Positions 3 to 7,181 of a stretch of 64,000 bases of DNA are shown piece by piece. Under the pieces are notes generated by a model. That model saw only the letters and a program-made list of their open reading frames with translations, ran no database searches and was not told the origin of the DNA. This DNA is from Planctomycetota bacterium (GTDB lineage Bacteria > Planctomycetota > UBA1135 > UBA2386), in contig JBKAGP010000001.1 in assembly GCA_046290465.1 (NCBI GenBank), positions 6,240,001 through 6,304,000 on the forward strand, read 5' to 3'. Numbering within the stretch: the first letter of the stretch is position 1; the number at the start of each line of letters is the position of its first letter. The position numbers were made by a program, and so were the translations under genes.

Positions 3-464
3 CACCTGATCCGGCTGTGTCCGGACGCGGTCTGCACCCACAAGGCCGGCACCGTCGGGCTCAGCGTGCGTGGCGAAGCGAAGTACCCCGGCAAGCGCAC
101 CTACCTGCACAGCAAGAACCGCTGGTACGTGCTGTTCACCTGCATGCGCTGGCGCACGCTGCTGCTGACGGTGCCGGCGCAGCTGGCCTACGGCATCGTC
201 TACGCCGCGTTCGGCGTCGGCCGCGGCCACCTCGGTTCGTGGCTGAAGGGCAAGTGGGAGCTGCTCAGGCTGCTGCCCAAGGCGATCGCCGCGCGGGGTC
301 CGGCGCAGCGCGGCCGCACCGTGCCCGATCGCGAACTGCTGGTCGCGACGCCGATGACGCTCAACCCGGGCCTCGCCGACAAGGGGGCCGGGGCGCTGCT
401 GCGGCGCACGATGGACCAGTTCTTCGCGGCCTACTGGCGGTTGGTGCGGGGCCTCTGTGGCTGA
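3..464 (+). CDS. Glycosyltransferase family 2, C-terminal part (truncated by the window start)
   Basis: The frame is open from base 3 (HLIRLCPDAVCTHKAG...YLHSKNRW), a typical GT2 C-terminus. It overlaps the next GT2 start. Confidence 0.65.
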   Translation, partial: HLIRLCPDAVCTHKAGTVGLSVRGEAKYPGKRTYLHSKNRWYVLFTCMRWRTLLLTVPAQLAYGIVYAAFGVGRGHLGSWLKGKWELLRLLPKAIAARGPAQRGRTVPDRELLVATPMTLNPGLADKGAGALLRRTMDQFFAAYWRLVRGLCG

Positions 465-1386
465 TCCCGCGCACGACCTGCGCGCGCTGGTGCTCAACTA
501 CCGCGGCGCCGAGATGACGATGCAGGTGGTGCGCGACCTGCTGGCGATCGACGACGCGCGGATCTCGGTGGCGGTGCTCGACAACGCGTCGGGCAAGGAC
601 GAGGTCGCCCAGCTCCGCGCCGCGATCGCCGCGCTCGTGCCGGGCGCGCACGAGGTCACGCTGCAGGCGTTCGACGACAACCTCGGCTTCGCCGCGGCGA
701 TGAGCCGCGGCATGCGCGACGCGTCCGCGCAGGGCTTCGCCTACTGCCTGGTCTGCAACAACGACCTGCGGCTGCCCCGCGACTGCGTGCGGCCGCTGCT
801 CGACGTGCTGCAGAACGACCGGCGCATCGCCGCGGTCGGCCCGACGATCGTCAATCCCGACGGCACCGTCTGGGCCGAGGGCGGCGAGGTCGGCTTCACC
901 AGCAACGCGCTGCGGCTGCGCCGGCAGGGCAAGCCGCCGACGGCGACCACCGCGGGGCCGGAGGAGGTCGACTTCCTGACCGGCGCGTTCGTGCTGCTTC
1001 GCGTCGACGCGGCGCTCGCGGTCGGCGCGTTCCCGGACGACTACTTCATGTACTGGGAGGACGTCGCGCTCAGCCACGCGCTGCGGCGCGCCGGCCACGG
1101 CGTCGTGTGGATCCCGTGGGTGCGCGTCGAGCACCTCGGCGGCCAGTCGTCGGGCGGCGGCCGCTCACCGCTGCGCAAGTTCTTGATGGCGTGCAACGCG
1201 GTGCGGTTCCTGAAGGCGCACGGCACCGTGACGGCCTGGTTGGGCTGGCTTCTGTTCGACGTGCTGCTGTGGCCGCTCGGGCTGCTCACCGGGCCGGCCG
1301 CCGCCGTCGCCAAGCTGCGCGGCACCTGCAAGGGCCTCGTCGGCCACGCGCCGTCGGCGGCGGACGTCGCGCGCTACCTCGGTTAG
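457..1386 (+). CDS. Glycosyltransferase family 2 (rhamnosyltransferase-like)
   Basis: Motifs VLNY, VLDNAS, NLGFAAA, NND, GAFVLL and YFMYWEDV. Confidence 0.9.
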   Translation: MADPAHDLRALVLNYRGAEMTMQVVRDLLAIDDARISVAVLDNASGKDEVAQLRAAIAALVPGAHEVTLQAFDDNLGFAAAMSRGMRDASAQGFAYCLVCNNDLRLPRDCVRPLLDVLQNDRRIAAVGPTIVNPDGTVWAEGGEVGFTSNALRLRRQGKPPTATTAGPEEVDFLTGAFVLLRVDAALAVGAFPDDYFMYWEDVALSHALRRAGHGVVWIPWVRVEHLGGQSSGGGRSPLRKFLMACNAVRFLKAHGTVTAWLGWLLFDVLLWPLGLLTGPAAAVAKLRGTCKGLVGHAPSAADVARYLG

Positions 1387-1395
1387 CCCGCCTCG

Positions 1396-1448
1396 CCCCG
1401 ACCACTACGACCCCGACCACTACGACCCCGACCACTACGACCCCGACC
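1396..1448. repeat. 15-bp tandem repeat (ccccgaccactacga), about 3.5 copies
   Basis: Exact copies at 1396, 1411 and 1426 plus a partial copy at 1441, between convergent genes. Confidence 0.95.
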
Positions 1449-1503
1449 GCTGCGGCCCGCTCGCCGCGATTGGGCGCGCGCCAGCGGCGTCCGGCCGCCG
1501 CGA

Positions 1504-2580
1504 TCAGGCCCGCCCTTCCGGCCGCGTGCGCGAACGTTCGGGGGTGCCGGGCCAGACGTCGCTGTTGGAGGTCGGTGCGAACTCGTCGGCGATCGCGCCA
1601 TCGATCGCCGAGCCGTGCTCGAGCACCGTGGCGAGCACCGTCAGCGAGCCGGCCTCGGCGGTCTGCCGGGCCGCGGCGAACAGCTGCTTGGCCGCCAGGA
1701 CCGCCCGGGCGTCGAGGCCGGGCTGGATCCACGCGCCGGACGGGGCCTGGCTGCGCGCGTGGGCGTGGGTCAGCGCGGTCACCGAGTCGAGCAGCAGCAC
1801 GACGTCGTGGCCGTGCTCGACGCGGCGCAGCGCGGCGTGCAGCGCGAGGTCGGCGACGTCGGCGTGGCGTCGCGGCGGCGACGCGAACGTGGTGCCGACG
1901 GTCGTCAGGTTGGCGTGCGCGTCGGCGGCCAGCGCGCGCGCGACGGCCAGGTCCTCCGGGCGCTGGTCGAGCAGGCACAGGGTCACGTCGACGCTCGGGT
2001 GGGCCGCGGCGATCGCGCCGGCGAGCGCCGTCAGCCACGCGGCGGTCGGTTCGTCCTGCTGCTTGTGCACCAGCACGCGATGGCCGAACCGCCACGGCGC
2101 CTGCTGCGCGAGGCCGGCCCACGGTCCGTCGTCGCCGAGCGGCAGCGCGCGGTCCGGCACGATCGCGGTGCGCGCGCCGAACGGCACCACGTCGCCGAGC
2201 GCGTCGGCGTCGACGCCCTGCACCGATTCGACGCGCGTCAGCGCCAGGAACCGTTCGTTGCCGCGCGGTGCGCGCAGCCGGCCCTTCACCCGGTGGCCCT
2301 GCTGCAGGTGCAGGCTGCGGATCTGGCTCGGGCTGACGTAGGCGTCGACGCCCGTCTCGCCGTAGTCGGTCGCGGCGAGGCGCACGAAGCCGAAGCCCTC
2401 GTGCAGCATCGACAGCTCGCCCTCGGTGACGACGTCGTCGCCGGCGGCGAGTCGCTGGGTGACCAGTTCGGCGACCAGCTCGTCGTGGGTCAGATGGGGG
2501 CGCAGGTCGAGGCCGTGCTCGGCGGCGAGCGCCAGCAGTTCGGGGCGCGGCTTCGCGAACAGCTCGGGCACGCAGATCAT
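1504..2580 (-). CDS. rho: Transcription termination factor Rho homologue with a degenerate ATPase domain
   Basis: GFGFVR, YVSPSQIR, ERFLAL, LLDQRPED, VVLLLDS and GSLTVLAT align with Rho. Walker A GKT is absent. The ATG overlaps the coaE stop (ATGA). Confidence 0.85.
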   Translation of the reverse strand: MICVPELFAKPRPELLALAAEHGLDLRPHLTHDELVAELVTQRLAAGDDVVTEGELSMLHEGFGFVRLAATDYGETGVDAYVSPSQIRSLHLQQGHRVKGRLRAPRGNERFLALTRVESVQGVDADALGDVVPFGARTAIVPDRALPLGDDGPWAGLAQQAPWRFGHRVLVHKQQDEPTAAWLTALAGAIAAAHPSVDVTLCLLDQRPEDLAVARALAADAHANLTTVGTTFASPPRRHADVADLALHAALRRVEHGHDVVLLLDSVTALTHAHARSQAPSGAWIQPGLDARAVLAAKQLFAAARQTAEAGSLTVLATVLEHGSAIDGAIADEFAPTSNSDVWPGTPERSRTRPEGRA

Positions 2581-3221
2581 GCGCCGCCCTCCAGCTCGGC
2601 GAGCAGCGCCGCGACCGCGCGGCGGGTCTGCTCGAGCGTGCCGCCGTTGTCGACCACGTGCTGCGAACGGGCGCGCTTGTCGGCGAGCGGCAGCTGGTTG
2701 CGTTCGCGGCGTGGCAGTTCTTGATCGTCCCAGCCGCGGCCGCGGGCGCGCTCGCGGCGGATTTCGTCGGGCGCGTCGACGAACACGATCGTGTCGCAGT
2801 GCTGCCACAGGCCGGCCTCGAACAGCAGCGGCACGTCGAGCAGGCTCGACTGGCCGGCGGCGCGGCTGCGGTCGAGCTCGGCCAGGATCCGGGCGCGCAC
2901 CCTCGGGTGCACGATCGCCTCTAGCTGCTGCTTGGCGTCCGGGTGCGAGAAGACGTGCTCGGCGACCGCCTGGCGGTCGAGCCGGCCGTCGACGACGAAC
3001 CGTTCTCCAAGCCTGGTCTGGACTTCTGCCAGGACCTGCGGGTCCTCGGTGGCCGCCCGGGCGTGCAAATCGGCGTCGATGTGGCGGATTCCGTGGGCCG
3101 AGAACAGGCCCGAAACGGTGCTCTTGCCCGATGCGACGCCGCCCACGAGTCCGATGACGAGGGGCTCAGGCGGCCCGAACGGGCGCTCCGGGGCCGGATC
3201 CGGCTTTTCGGGGGGCGGCAT
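2577..3221 (-). CDS. coaE: Dephospho-CoA kinase
   Basis: Motifs IGLVGGVASGKSTV, IDAD, LEAIVHP, DVPLLFE and VVDNGG. Confidence 0.95.
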   Translation of the reverse strand: MPPPEKPDPAPERPFGPPEPLVIGLVGGVASGKSTVSGLFSAHGIRHIDADLHARAATEDPQVLAEVQTRLGERFVVDGRLDRQAVAEHVFSHPDAKQQLEAIVHPRVRARILAELDRSRAAGQSSLLDVPLLFEAGLWQHCDTIVFVDAPDEIRRERARGRGWDDQELPRRERNQLPLADKRARSQHVVDNGGTLEQTRRAVAALLAELEGGA

Positions 3222-3476
3222 CCCGGCATCGTCGGGGACCGGCCCGGCTCAGGCAAGTCGTGCCTGGACGCCACCTTGACCATGGCCTCCGTCTTTCTAA
3301 GATCCCGGATCCCTGCGTGAGGCCGTGCCCTCGGTCCGAACGCGGATTCGATCTCCCGTCCGATCCAAAGCCCCTCTCTTCCCCTCCGACGTTCTCCCGA
3401 CGTCCGTCCCTTGCCGTTGTCTGCCCCCGCGGCAACGCAACGCCCTCAACGCACAGACCCCTTGGAGTTGGTTCCT

Positions 3477-4757
3477 ATGCACAGTCGCCAGATGAGCAGT
3501 CGCCAGAGCGGTGCCGCCCACGTCCCGATCATGTTCTTCCTGCTGCTGCTCCTGATGTTCTTCGGAGCACTGGGCTTCGGCTGGGTCCAGCAGACCAACA
3601 ACGCCGAGCTGCAGAAGAAGGCCGACGAGGCCCGCGCCGAGCTCAAGACGATCCAGGGCAAGGAGACGCTGATCCAGGACTACATTGACGACATCGGCAA
3701 GGTCGTCAACAAGCCGGGGCCGTACCTCGGTCGCCCGGGCGGCATCTACGAAGGTGCCACCATCGAGTACCCCGGCCTGATGGACCCCAAGCAGGTCAAG
3801 CAGGTGATGGACGACGCCGCGACCAACGCCGGCGTGTCGCAGGCCAGCTCGCTCGAGAACCTGCTCGGCGCGATGATCACGCGCATCAACACGATGACGC
3901 AGCGCGTCAAGGACATCGAGCTCGAGCGCGACAAGGCGATCGCCGACAAGAGCACCGGTGACCAGCGCTACACGACCCTCGAGGGCGAAGCGAGCACGCG
4001 CGCCAGCGAGAACTCGACCAACCTCGAGCAGGCGCGTTCGGACTTCCAGTCGGCCAAGGACGACCGTGACCGTCGCATCGCGACGCTGACGGAGAACCTG
4101 CGCAACAAGGACGAGGAGATGACCTCGCTGAAGGAGGACTTCGCCGCCAAGGAGAAGGACCTGCTCGGTCGCATCGCCCGCCTGCAGACCCAGAACTCGG
4201 CCCTGGTCGAGCGTGAGGCCCTGCGCCAGCCGCCGAACGTCGCGGACGGCAAGGTGCTGGTCGCCAAGAACGGCATCCCGAAGGCCTTCATCAACCTGGG
4301 CCGCAAGGACCTGCTGCAGCCGGGCACGGTGTTCCGGGTCAAGAGCCCGAACAACCAGGCCGTCAAGGGCTACTGCCAGGTCACGCGCGTCGAGGACGAG
4401 CGCGCCGAAGTGCGCCTGTTCGACTTCGTCGACCCGGTCGGCAACTACGCCAGCGAAGGCGACCTGCTGTTCAACGACCTCTACACGCCGCGCGTCACGC
4501 GCACGATGTACCTGATGGGTCGCTTCAGCGCGCCGTACGGCAAGGAGCAGCTGACCAACCTGCTGCGCCGCCTCGGCAACCGCGTCGTGACCAAGATGGG
4601 CCCCGGCGTCGACACCGTGATCCTGGGCAACAACCCGGTCAACGAAGCCGGCGACGGCTTCAGCGCCATCCAGGAGAGCGAGGAGTTCAAGCTCGCCAAC
4701 GAGCTGCGCGTGGAGTTCACCTACCTCGCCAAGATCGCCGACCTGGTCAAGCTCTAG
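3477..4757 (+). CDS. Membrane-anchored coiled-coil protein with a C-terminal BRCT-like domain
   Basis: GGAG RBS before ATG 3477. An N-terminal hydrophobic helix and long heptad region precede a C-terminus resembling BRCT (MGRF...EQLTNLLRRLGNRVVTKMGPGVDTVILG). Confidence 0.65.
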   Translation: MHSRQMSSRQSGAAHVPIMFFLLLLLMFFGALGFGWVQQTNNAELQKKADEARAELKTIQGKETLIQDYIDDIGKVVNKPGPYLGRPGGIYEGATIEYPGLMDPKQVKQVMDDAATNAGVSQASSLENLLGAMITRINTMTQRVKDIELERDKAIADKSTGDQRYTTLEGEASTRASENSTNLEQARSDFQSAKDDRDRRIATLTENLRNKDEEMTSLKEDFAAKEKDLLGRIARLQTQNSALVEREALRQPPNVADGKVLVAKNGIPKAFINLGRKDLLQPGTVFRVKSPNNQAVKGYCQVTRVEDERAEVRLFDFVDPVGNYASEGDLLFNDLYTPRVTRTMYLMGRFSAPYGKEQLTNLLRRLGNRVVTKMGPGVDTVILGNNPVNEAGDGFSAIQESEEFKLANELRVEFTYLAKIADLVKL

Positions 4758-4784
4758 GCTTTTCCACCCCGCGCGACCCCCAGC

Positions 4785-4818
4785 ACAGGCGGCCTCGATG
4801 GCCGCCTGTTCTGGTTTT
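4785..4818 (+). terminator. Probable intrinsic terminator
   Basis: Stem acaggcggcc/ggccgcctgt followed by tctggtttt, just after the stop at 4757. Confidence 0.55.
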
Positions 4819-4995
4819 GGGGGGCGGCCAATCGTCTGGTTCCGCGACGAAGCCTTGCCGACCAGCGCGTCGGTCGTTCGCCGCTCCGTTCGTGCGGTCG
4901 GAACGTCGGCTCCCGGAGCCGACCTTTCGGCCCGTGCGGGGTGGTTGTTTTGGGTTTGGGGCAAATCGCGGCGGGCCTAAGCTGTTGCATCGCTC

Positions 4996-5958
4996 ATGCC
5001 GCTCGACCAACCGGAGATCCGCGACGCCATCGACCAGCCCGACGCGTTGCCGCGGATGACGTTCGGTGACCACCTGGACGAACTGCGCAAGCGGGTGATC
5101 TGGTCGCTGCTCGCGGTGATCATCGCGGTGCTCGGCGTGCTGCCGTTCAAGACGACGGTGCAGCAGATCATCGTCGGGCCGTACCGCCAGCAGTGGGAGA
5201 TCGGCTTCGACGACTGGATCGAGAACCTCGAGGCCCGCGAAGCGTCGGGCGACCTGGCCGGCGACGAGGACGGCCAGGCCTACCTGAAGTTCTGCCGCGA
5301 ACACCGCGACTCGATCCTCGACAACACCTACCGCTATCCGTGGACGGTCGTCGAGAAGAGCGGCTACCCGGTGCCCTACAACCTCTACGCGACGGGCGGG
5401 CTCGAAGACATCCTGTCGTTCATGTGGGCGTCGTTCATCTTCGCCCTGGTGCTCGCGAGCCCGGTGGTCGTCTGGCAGATCTGGGCGTTCATCGCGGCAG
5501 GGCTCTATCGCCACGAACGGCTGGTCTTCTACCGCTACTTCCCGTTCATGGTGCTGCTCGGCGTCGCCGGCGTGCTGTTCGGCTACAAGGTCGCGCTGCC
5601 GTACAGCCTGGGCTTCTTGATGAGCATGATGGATCCGGCGATCGTCGGCGCGATCCTCAGCATCGGCCAGTTCTTCAACCTGCTGTTCATGACCACCGCG
5701 GCGATGGGCATCGTCTTCCAGGTGCCGCTCGTCATGCTCGCGCTGCAGAAGGTCGGCATCGTGCGCCACGAGGCGTTCATCAAGCACTGGCGCATGACGC
5801 TGCTGGCGATCTTCATCCTGTCGGCATTGTTCAGCCCTCCTGAGCCGGTCTCGATGGTGTTGATGTCGCTGCCGATGATCCTGCTCTACGGCGTCGGCCT
5901 GATCCTGACGCGCTCCGGCCAGAAGCACGAACCGCCGGCGCCGGAGGTCGGCGCGTGA
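4996..5958 (+). CDS. tatC: Twin-arginine translocase subunit TatC
   Basis: Motifs MTFGDHLDELRKR, WQIWAFIAAGLY.HE, FQVP and SPPEP, with multiple TM helices. Confidence 0.93.
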   Translation: MPLDQPEIRDAIDQPDALPRMTFGDHLDELRKRVIWSLLAVIIAVLGVLPFKTTVQQIIVGPYRQQWEIGFDDWIENLEAREASGDLAGDEDGQAYLKFCREHRDSILDNTYRYPWTVVEKSGYPVPYNLYATGGLEDILSFMWASFIFALVLASPVVVWQIWAFIAAGLYRHERLVFYRYFPFMVLLGVAGVLFGYKVALPYSLGFLMSMMDPAIVGAILSIGQFFNLLFMTTAAMGIVFQVPLVMLALQKVGIVRHEAFIKHWRMTLLAIFILSALFSPPEPVSMVLMSLPMILLYGVGLILTRSGQKHEPPAPEVGA

Positions 5959-7181
5959 TCGCCGAGGTCGTCGCGATCGGCGATGAACTGCTGCACGGTG
6001 GCCTGCTCGACACCAACAGCAAGTACCTCGCGCAGGAGCTCGAACGGCTCGGCGCCGTCGTGCGCCGCATCACCGTCGTCGGCGACGACCCGGAGCAGCT
6101 GCGTGCGGGGATCGACGAGTCGTGCCGGCGCGCCGACGTCGTGCTGGCGACCGGCGGCCTCGGGCCGACGCTCGACGACCGCACCCGCGACGTCGTCGCG
6201 CAGCTGCTCGGCGAACCGCTGCGCTTTCACGAGCCGAGCTGGGCACAGGTGCAGGCCTGGTTCGAACGGTTCCGCCGCCCCTGCCCCGACAGCAACCGGC
6301 GCCAGGCCGAGCTGCCGGCATCGGCGGAGGCGCTGACGAACACGACCGGCACCGCGCCCGGCTTCTTCGCGAAGATCCACGGCGCGACGTTGTTCGCGAT
6401 GCCCGGCGTGCCGCGCGAGATGAAGGTGATGCTGCGCGACGAGGTGCTGCCGCGCGTGGCCCGGCTCGGCGAGCTGACCCCGACCGCGCACCGCCTGCTG
6501 CGCGTGCTCGGCCCTTCCGAGGCGATGCTCGGCGAACGCATCGGCGAGCACATGCTGCCCGGCCACAACCCGCAGGTCGGCATCACCGCGTCCGGCGGCC
6601 TGCTGACCGTGCGCATCGTCGCGACCGCGCCGTGCCACGACGAGGCCGCCGCGCGCTGCGAACGGCTCGCCGCCGAGCTGCGCCCCAAGCTCGGCGACTG
6701 GCTGTTCGCCGAAGGCGAGCAGGAGTTGCCCGAGCTGGTGCTCGAACGGCTGCGTGCGGCCGGCCAGACGATCGCGTTCGCCGAGTCGTGCACCGGCGGG
6801 CTGTGCGCCGCGCGCCTGACCGACGTTGCCGGCTCGTCGGCGGTGATGATGGGCGGCGTGGTCGCCTACAGCAACGAGGCCAAGCAGGCGCTGCTCGGCG
6901 TGCCGGCGGAGCTGCTGACGCAGCACGGCGCGGTCAGCGAGCCAGTCGCTCGGGCGATGGCCGAGGGCGCGCGCGGCCGCTTCGGCGCCACCTGCGCGCT
7001 GGCGACGACCGGCATCGCCGGGCCGTCCGGCGGCAGCGCCGACAAGCCGGTCGGCACGGTGTGCTTCGGCTACGCCGATGCCACCGGAGCCAGGGCGTGG
7101 ACCGTGCGCATCCCCGACCTCGGCCGCGTGTTCGTGCGCGACCGCGCCGTGTTCGAGGTCTGGCGCACGCTGCTCCGGTGA
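5955..7181 (+). CDS. cinA: Competence/damage-inducible protein CinA (with a PncC-like NMN deamidase domain)
   Basis: Motifs IGDELL.G...DTN, TGGLGPT.DD.T, PGVP.EM, AESCTGG and TGIAGP.GG. Confidence 0.95.
   Translation: MIAEVVAIGDELLHGGLLDTNSKYLAQELERLGAVVRRITVVGDDPEQLRAGIDESCRRADVVLATGGLGPTLDDRTRDVVAQLLGEPLRFHEPSWAQVQAWFERFRRPCPDSNRRQAELPASAEALTNTTGTAPGFFAKIHGATLFAMPGVPREMKVMLRDEVLPRVARLGELTPTAHRLLRVLGPSEAMLGERIGEHMLPGHNPQVGITASGGLLTVRIVATAPCHDEAAARCERLAAELRPKLGDWLFAEGEQELPELVLERLRAAGQTIAFAESCTGGLCAARLTDVAGSSAVMMGGVVAYSNEAKQALLGVPAELLTQHGAVSEPVARAMAEGARGRFGATCALATTGIAGPSGGSADKPVGTVCFGYADATGARAWTVRIPDLGRVFVRDRAVFEVWRTLLR

Follow-up and report, generated by a model that had tools for sequence, protein, structure and literature searches.

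A motor-dead Rho kept across a planctomycete family: a likely pseudo-ATPase beside an intact second copy

Introduction

What is a Rho protein kept for once its motor is gone? Rho is treated as a homohexamer with invariant motor residues, and a motor-dead Rho beside a working copy offers a natural test of Rho without its engine and of mixed rings. The question is raised by rhoA, a gene in a stretch of 64,000 nucleotides from a Planctomycetota genome; the whole stretch is called the window here, its genome is G000, and other G numbers denote the genomes compared with it. A sequence-only reading of the window had taken the gene for a Rho with an intact RNA-binding domain and an apparently dead ATPase, derived from the ancestral copy and retained for a non-catalytic function. 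It proposed a Rho profile alignment and a genome search for a second, canonical rho as checks, and named intact motifs in close relatives together with dN/dS near 1 as marks of simple decay. Beyond that reading, we find that the dead state is evidently as old as the family, that the motor was eroded stepwise, that the gene is occasionally deleted, and that it is retained without a working Rho in two genomes. Residues are numbered after E. coli Rho (Ec, from NC_000913.3), to which the window RhoA was aligned.

The rhoA locus

As the sequence-only reading had it, rhoA is an uninterrupted 358-aa frame overlapping coaE. It runs from 2580 to 1504 on the minus strand without internal stop, and its start shares the letters ATGA with the coaE stop. 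The plus-strand frame over 1504-2580 was rejected as a gene, being the antisense shadow of rhoA. The locus contains the following features:

457..1386, plus strand: family 2 glycosyltransferase gene, convergent with rhoA (Pfam and locus comparison)
1504..2580, minus strand: rhoA, a motor-dead Group A Rho of 358 aa (ORF list, Pfam and TIGR profiles, alignment to E. coli Rho, AlphaFold2)
2577..3221, minus strand: coaE, dephospho-CoA kinase, the conserved upstream neighbour (PF01121, E 5.7e-41)
2588..2592, minus strand: GGAGG, a putative Shine-Dalgarno-like element inside the coaE end, 7 nt 5' of the rhoA ATG (sequence)

The stops of rhoA and of the convergent glycosyltransferase gene flank 3.5 exact copies of a 15-bp unit (1396-1448); in a near-identical contig from run X3, 34 different letters replace window positions 1403-1502. 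A gene divergent from coaE throughout the family and in family f7 (3411-4757, plus strand) encodes a conserved coiled-coil protein of 448 aa; its N-terminus is hydrophobic over a stretch, and it matches no Pfam family. A promoter and terminator scan of the window gave no minus-strand prediction. Among metatranscriptomes, two runs of one study matched with small shares (0.12 and 0.06). A contig of 224 bases falls within rhoA and another of 261 bases at the start of coaE, although contigs assembled from RNA libraries may stem from DNA.

A whole fold around a dismantled motor

The AlphaFold2 model of RhoA (mean pLDDT 96.4, 74-row alignment) superposes on residues 1-374 of an E. coli Rho chain (6wa8) with Z 44.2 and an rmsd of 1.9 Å over 351 residues, and the fold is predicted to be whole as far as the lost C-terminal helices. 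The proposed profile alignment divides the protein in a similar way: PF07497 (Rho_RNA_bind) passes with 70.3 bits (E 1.2e-19, cut-off 27), ATP-synt_ab stays under its cut-off (19.8 against 29.5 bits), and TIGR00767 stays far under its own (211.8 against 509.45). NF041509, the profile of Group B or short-form Rho, gives 130 bits for a cut-off of 628, so RhoA is not Group B. Pfam Rho_N has no match in RhoA at E 0.1. The parts of the protein map as follows:

2440..2580, minus strand: N-terminal helical bundle, residues ~1-47, absent in the second Rho, RhoB (three model helices; alignment from Ec residue 1)
2206..2424, minus strand: RNA-binding OB domain, residues 53-125 (PF07497, residue table)
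2041..2064, minus strand: destroyed Walker A, KQQDEPTA, equal to Ec 178-185 (alignment)
1951..1968, minus strand: DQRPED (Ec DERPEE), Q in place of the catalytic E211, arginine valve R212 retained (residue table)
1774..1788, minus strand: Walker B DSVTA (Ec DSITR), D265 retained, R269 gone (residue table)
1717..1740, minus strand: remodelled Q-loop SGAWIQPG (Ec SGKVLTGG) (residue table)
1600..1614, minus strand: R-loop GSAID (Ec GSKMD), basic residue 326 gone (residue table)
1552..1557, minus strand: junction of an in-frame deletion of ~13 residues (Ec 346-358, including R353 and F355) (alignment)
1516..1536, minus strand: RSRTRPE, in which T352-R353 of RhoA equal Ec T365-R366, the arginine finger (alignment)

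Alignment with the NC_000913.3 protein upheld the description of the motifs nearly throughout. The Rho RNA-binding motifs and Walker B are kept: RhoA retains GFGF, YVSPSQIR, E108, an F at Y110 and D265-S266, and its OB domain has the equivalents of Ec F62, F64, R66, D78, Y80, S82, Q85 and E108. Loss of Walker A also stands, with one correction of place: the sequence-only reading had set HKQQDEPT against Ec APPKAGKT, whereas KQQDEPTA, one residue later, is what aligns (G183P, K184T, T185A). DQRPED, DSVTA, SGAWIQPG and GSAID are the changes it had read, the segment it had missed is the one around Ec 346-358, and the arginine-finger-like RSRTRPE is found where expected, the chain stopping 5 residues past the R366 equivalent with the C-terminal helices absent. 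Measured against a functional Rho, RhoA has RNP1/2/3 of the RNA-binding domain, the fold (over Ec 1-374 only), D265, R212 and R366; it lacks the Walker A GKT (PTA at Ec 183-185) and with it the P-loop, the catalytic Glu E211, R269, the Q-loop and R-loop, the adenine lid, K336 and the C-terminal helices. Deletion of the lid (Ec 346-358) and truncation just past the finger are common to G000, G003, G007 and G012. Assembly error was rejected as the cause of the motif changes, as they are common to relatives; in the run X3 contig no indel falls within rhoA among the differences listed.

The second Rho of the genome

The proposed genome search found one other rho, which is canonical in its motor. 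RhoB (G000:C1:1269042-1270382, minus strand) is unlinked to rhoA and keeps APPRSGKT, DERPEE, DSITR, GSRMD, EEFKGTGN and SGTRKEE. In place of a Rho_N domain it has an Arg/Gly-rich N-terminus, and its RNA site is altered, GNGW replacing GFGF (45 bits). Across the family, the RhoB primary site has N or S at F62, W at F64 and P at S82, and E108 is absent. RhoB is a Group B Rho as described by Moreira 2024 (PMC11347177, available portion). Judged by their residues, the two proteins look complementary: RhoA has an RNA site and a bundle without a motor, RhoB a motor without a bundle and with an altered site. Prediction of a RhoB, RhoA, ATP and Mg complex scored 0.11, under the mark of 0.32, with controls that did not fold, and it is counted neither for nor against co-assembly. 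The rhoB gene (locus L002, G000:C1:1267894-1271679) is followed, throughout the order, by an ABC transporter ATPase gene and diverges from clpP; in G167 (C11:491944-493066) and G028 (L244) it is split over two frames, by assembly error or in reality.

Breadth and age of the motor loss

To place the window protein, E. coli Rho was aligned with 76 family RhoA (14 from the genus and 62 from outside it), with 70 RhoB, and with 21 RhoA drawn from nine further families. The set holds the fetched loci and not every match, the RhoA of G180 and G171 were inspected separately, and the number behind each residue count varies with alignment coverage. The Walker A lysine K184 occurs in 0/76 family RhoA (R in 61/76), against 21/21 RhoA of other families and 69/69 RhoB. 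Similarly few family members retain R269 (3/75), G287 (1/75), K336 (3/75), T338 (2/75) or R353 (2/75), while E211 persists in 31/62 members outside the genus and in 0/13 within it, 12 of which have Q. Outside the family all seven residues are intact in RhoA (21/21), as they are in each RhoB with coverage at the position (69/69 or 70/70). Some positions have acquired new residues: K or R at T338 is fixed in 60/76 family RhoA, and the W (W284), Q and P (P287) of the Q-loop are newly fixed in the genus (13/13, 12/13 and 13/13).

Other parts of the protein have been kept. Within the motor, D265 (74/75), R212 (60/75) and R173 (76/76) are retained, and in the finger region R366 (73/75), T365 (71/75) and E368 (65/73). 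R366 ranks 7 of 89 invariant motor-domain positions (97% against a median of 64%), and R173, E255 and D265 are conserved as well as it is; its neighbours on the finger face are eroded, K336 and T338 as given above, G337 to 37%, E333 to 29% and W381 to 0/76. The RNA-binding residues F64 (71/74), R66 (74/74), D78 (75/75), Q85 (72/75) and E108 (76/76) persist. At the primary site the family even exceeds the intact RhoA of other families, with F62 in 69/74 vs 13/21, S82 in 66/75 vs 12/21 and Q85 in 72/75 vs 9/21.

On a quick tree built without the motif columns and without 4 partial rows, the 73 family RhoA group in a single clade (SH-aLRT 100), nested among the intact, coaE-linked RhoA of the order. 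FastTree trees of RhoA and of RhoB make family f7 the sister; a quick IQ-TREE run gives family RhoA no resolved sister. Mapped on the tree, K184 was lost once, on the family stem, whereas E211 changed four times and the C-terminus was truncated four times independently, each time stopping 1-7 residues past the R366 column (register uncertain in G208/G212). The gene order agrees with descent in place: coaE lies upstream of rhoA in 72/76 family loci and in 20/21 intact orthologues of other families, and of the four exceptions three are at contig edges and one, in G023 (L022), has lost coaE there. By its N-terminal bundle, its coaE linkage and its grouping with intact Group A proteins, the window RhoA belongs to the Group A Rho lineage, and the proposal that the ancestral copy is the one that degenerated holds. 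Motor loss in this canonical copy dates to the family stem, and the dead state is as old as the family. Recent decay private to G000 was rejected, motor loss being common to the whole family, and a horizontal origin was rejected on coaE linkage and tree position.

Several observations lie beside this history. In the sister families f9 and f10 (L201-L204, L207-L211) RhoA took the opposite course, with an intact motor and drifted RNP1 and RNP2. K184 or R269 is missing from 31/150 Rho profile matches, 23 of the 31 inside the family clade, and eroded Rho outside that clade are P0104, P0133 and P0135; P0106, P0110, P0128 and P0151; and P0150. Among look-alikes in the atlas are clusters of short Rho, found most often in Myxococcota and Chloroflexota.

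Selection on a motor-dead protein

Purifying selection is indicated by omega values of 0.03-0.31 across both RhoA domains, a range that excludes saturated GY94 fits (G000/G007 RhoA, G164/G023 and three others). For G000/G003, near saturation, GY94 gives 0.028 in the RNA domain and 0.044 in the motor domain; G000/G012 gives 0.16, and four other family pairs give 0.07-0.23 for the motor domain. Compared with RhoB (0.011-0.041) and a pair of intact RhoA (0.015), constraint is relaxed, motor-domain omega being about tenfold above that of RhoB, and omega = 1 is rejected in each pair tested and in both domains (LRT 16-250). NG86, which underestimates dS at this GC content, gives whole-gene values of 0.06-0.69 over 25 family pairs, with 0.43 for G000/G003 vs 0.12 for RhoB. 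Summed terminal branches come to 18.6 for the motor domain vs 20.1 for the RNA domain, so that overall constraint on the two is alike. Relative to the run X3 contig, which has 42 differences over 1503-6000 (12 of them outside the listing), 7/10 listed rhoA differences are synonymous where ~27% would be expected.

Within the genus, RhoA proteins are 44-65% identical vs 84-95% for RhoB; between G000 and G003, RhoA identity is 65% and that of coaE 68%. GC3 of rhoA is 0.96, and none of the 76 aligned orthologues is split over two frames. A pseudogene was rejected, as the frame is intact and evolution not neutral. In the G180 rhoA (L258) there are two locally unalignable stretches that resemble compensated frameshifts. 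Together, the codon comparisons show that rhoA encodes a relaxed but selected protein, and we consider it highly probable that RhoA is a selected pseudo-enzyme. Neither of the named marks of simple decay was seen: in close relatives the motifs are not intact, and dN/dS lies well under 1, which refutes simple recent decay. The sequence-only reading is partly supported; the specific functions it named stay proposals.

Presence and absence of the two copies

A rho match is found in 151/151 sampled genomes of the class, mostly two; 74 of the 91 family genomes have at least two Rho matches, 16 have one and 1 has none. In 4/91 (G005, G118, G189 and G200) rhoA has been cleanly deleted, and the family 2 glycosyltransferase gene, its next neighbour, adjoins coaE. 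G005 belongs to the same genus as G000 and has ~80% DNA identity to the window. These deletions make RhoA dispensable, and in the three of the four rhoA-less genomes tested, no RhoB column tracks its loss.

The opposite loss also occurs. In G164 and G023 rhoB has been cleanly deleted, clpP adjoining the ABC gene, and a single Rho_RNA_bind match is left; the G164 assembly is in 2 contigs and 91% complete. The two may have lost rhoB together, in one event (sister support 64). Their RhoA carry K184R, R269Q/E and T338K and retain R366, and they are 86% identical in the RNA domain and 67% in the motor domain, with motor-domain rates that rank 2 and 14 of 75, within the overall spread. Strict co-occurrence is therefore not observed, RhoA standing alone in 2 genomes and RhoB in 4, and deletions in either direction count against an obligate partnership. 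The remaining singletons are kept out of the tally of losses. Nine of them were treated as assembly gaps, since the neighbour gene is missing too: the ABC neighbour of rhoB in G176, G178, G202, G205 and G206, and coaE in G173, G175, G210 and G213. The tenth, G171, has rhoA. In G164 (L262) and G023 (L263), genomes of 8-10 Mb, no motor-intact Rho was found, which makes them candidates for bacterial life without Rho-dependent termination.

Mixed rings and the alternatives

Our preferred reading, to which we give a probability of about 0.4, is that RhoA and RhoB form mixed rings in which RhoA is the subunit that loads RNA and does not catalyse, much like F1 alpha in its own ring. A pseudo-ATPase derived from a Group A Rho and a non-essential accessory of the intact RhoB, it would co-assemble with RhoB, supply rut-site binding, and lend R366 to the adjacent RhoB active site without any hydrolysis of its own, the part that F1 alpha plays for beta. 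In this way it may tune the loading of RhoB, which transcripts and how fast, and the net result may be either a gain or a loss of termination. The central argument is that the residues of the protein's own nucleotide site are gone while the finger that acts in trans is retained. R366 acts from the adjacent subunit, and K181, T185, M186, F355, R212 and E211 belong to the nucleotide's own site, according to the available part of PMC11718236; PMC11829017, in its available part, also assigns R366 to the neighbouring subunit's ATP site. Our division into cis and trans residues rests on these two sources and is complete for R366 only. In the same direction point the four truncations that stop just past R366, the loss of the adenine lid with sparing of the finger in the G000 clade, the altered primary site of RhoB next to the canonical one of RhoA, a motor domain constrained overall like the RNA domain (motor omega 0.04-0.23), the 74 family genomes with at least two Rho matches, and the Q at the E211 column in the F1 alpha of this genome. 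A/B hetero-hexamers have been proposed by Moreira 2024 (PMC11347177, available portion). Against mixed rings stand the persistence of RhoA and its finger without an active partner in G164 and G023, RhoB working alone in four genomes with no tracking column, the eroded finger-face neighbours, and the lack of linkage between the two genes. With those eroded neighbours, and with R366 retained in the RhoB-less genomes, the finger argument is suggestive only. The finger also sits where a RecA-type core naturally ends and, given equal conservation of R173, E255 and D265, may be structural.

The two RhoB-less genomes are best explained if RhoA needs no RhoB and acts as a homo-oligomer that binds RNA independently of ATP, its dead motor domain being only a scaffold: an RNA chaperone, a cover on C-rich untranslated RNA, which would compete with RhoB where RhoB is present, or an open ring on RNA polymerase. 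We regard this, the main rival, as somewhat unlikely. The high identity of the RNA domains relative to the motor domains in G164 and G023 agrees with it, as does the better conservation of the primary site than in intact RhoA elsewhere, and there are precedents, in the available parts of the sources, in Baekduia and Conexibacter with a dead Rho-like protein only (PMC11347177) and in an open, catalytically inactive Rho on RNA polymerase (PMC12360218). Yet the RhoB-less state occurs in just 2/91 genomes and perhaps arose once, the faster motor rate there is weak and equally fits release from a partner, and 97% retention of R366 is left unexplained. In genomes that lack RhoB, RhoA has nothing to compete with, and the purely rut-competing or dominant-negative subunit of the sequence-only reading cannot account for these two genomes either. 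Mixed rings and homo-oligomers are not mutually exclusive; that Rho was split, in the manner of F1 alpha and beta, into an RNA-recognition RhoA and a motor RhoB with an altered RNA site, joined in mixed rings where RhoA lends its finger, with an additional motor-free role of RhoA on RNA or RNA polymerase, seems a little less probable still than homo-oligomers by themselves, the motor-free role being suggested by retention of RhoA where the sole active Rho was deleted.

Less likely again is that RhoA is a redundant paralogue in the last stage of a very slow decay that set in once termination had passed to RhoB. Residual selection would then act only to keep RhoA from misfolding or from poisoning RhoB rings, up to the point of deletion. 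Stepwise erosion (K184 once on the stem, E211 and truncation four times each), four clean deletions including one in a close congener, the elevated omega, the low identity within the genus and the locally scrambled look of G180 rhoA all fit such a course. It is opposed by the rejection of omega = 1 in both domains of all tested pairs, the excess of synonymous differences between near-identical strains, the unbroken frames and high GC3, the fixation of new residues at T338, W284 and P287, and a divergence from G003 that resembles that of coaE; moreover, RhoA is retained in genomes without any RhoB that it could poison. A last alternative, which we hold improbable, is that less eroded family RhoA, with a GR(T/S) P-loop, E211, R212, D265 and R366, still hydrolyse ATP slowly and terminate, only the derived genera being dead. 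This would account for G164 and G023 with RhoA alone, and E211 in half of the non-congeneric members and K184R in 61/76 speak for it. The same proteins lack R269, G287, K/R326 and R353, and a Walker A K-to-R change normally blocks hydrolysis, which counts against residual ATPase. The idea is in any case inapplicable to the window RhoA, which has no P-loop, E211 or adenine lid.

The family also shows that a 'rho' annotation in a genome may cover no working motor. The family and its relatives form a natural series, from intact A and B in the sister families through partly dead A with B to fully dead, truncated A with B in G000, ending in four genomes whose sole copy is B and two whose sole copy is a dead A. 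With this series, hetero-hexamers and ATP-independent roles of Rho become directly testable with few purified proteins.

Comparison with known systems

With E. coli and other Group A Rho (TIGR00767, NF006886) RhoA shares the fold, the N-terminal bundle and the RNP1/2/3 residues, and differs from them in lacking Walker A, E211, R269, K326, K336, R353 and the C-terminal helices and in its remodelled Q-loop. F1 alpha is a non-catalytic subunit that lends an arginine finger. It belongs to the same fold family, and in this genome the E211 column has Q in F1 alpha (AtpA) and E in F1 beta and FliI. Unlike RhoA, whose P-loop is gone and which is dispensable, F1 alpha keeps GKT and is obligatory; the likeness is an analogy, not membership. 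Rof, Psu and YihE (PMC12360218, available part) similarly modulate Rho rings without catalysis, but they have unrelated folds and act from outside, whereas RhoA would be a homologous subunit.

The nearest relatives of the present case are described in Moreira 2024 (PMC11347177), in the portion available. Pairs of Group A and Group B Rho occur there in the PVC group and in Actinomycetota, and mixed rings were raised as a possibility for the many PVC bacteria with two Rho types. These pairs are likewise two unlinked ancient paralogues, with B lacking the N-terminal bundle and keeping its motor; the A copy there is described as very conserved, whereas here its motor was lost family-wide and catalysis is left to B. 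Dead Rho-like proteins of Rubrobacteria and Thermoleophilia are noted in the supplement. Those of Baekduia, Conexibacter and their relatives, compared by description, are full-length, with a conserved RNA domain and without the catalytic Glu or the Q/R-loops; they differ from RhoA in belonging to another phylum and in being the only Rho, with no active paralogue. A literature search, in which most of the Moreira supplement was covered by term search, found no motor-dead Group A Rho in Planctomycetota or beside an active Group B copy, and no selection test on such a protein. Known before are the A/B pairs and the dead Rho-like proteins of two actinobacterial classes; new, within the reach of that search, is a motor-dead A copy beside an active B.
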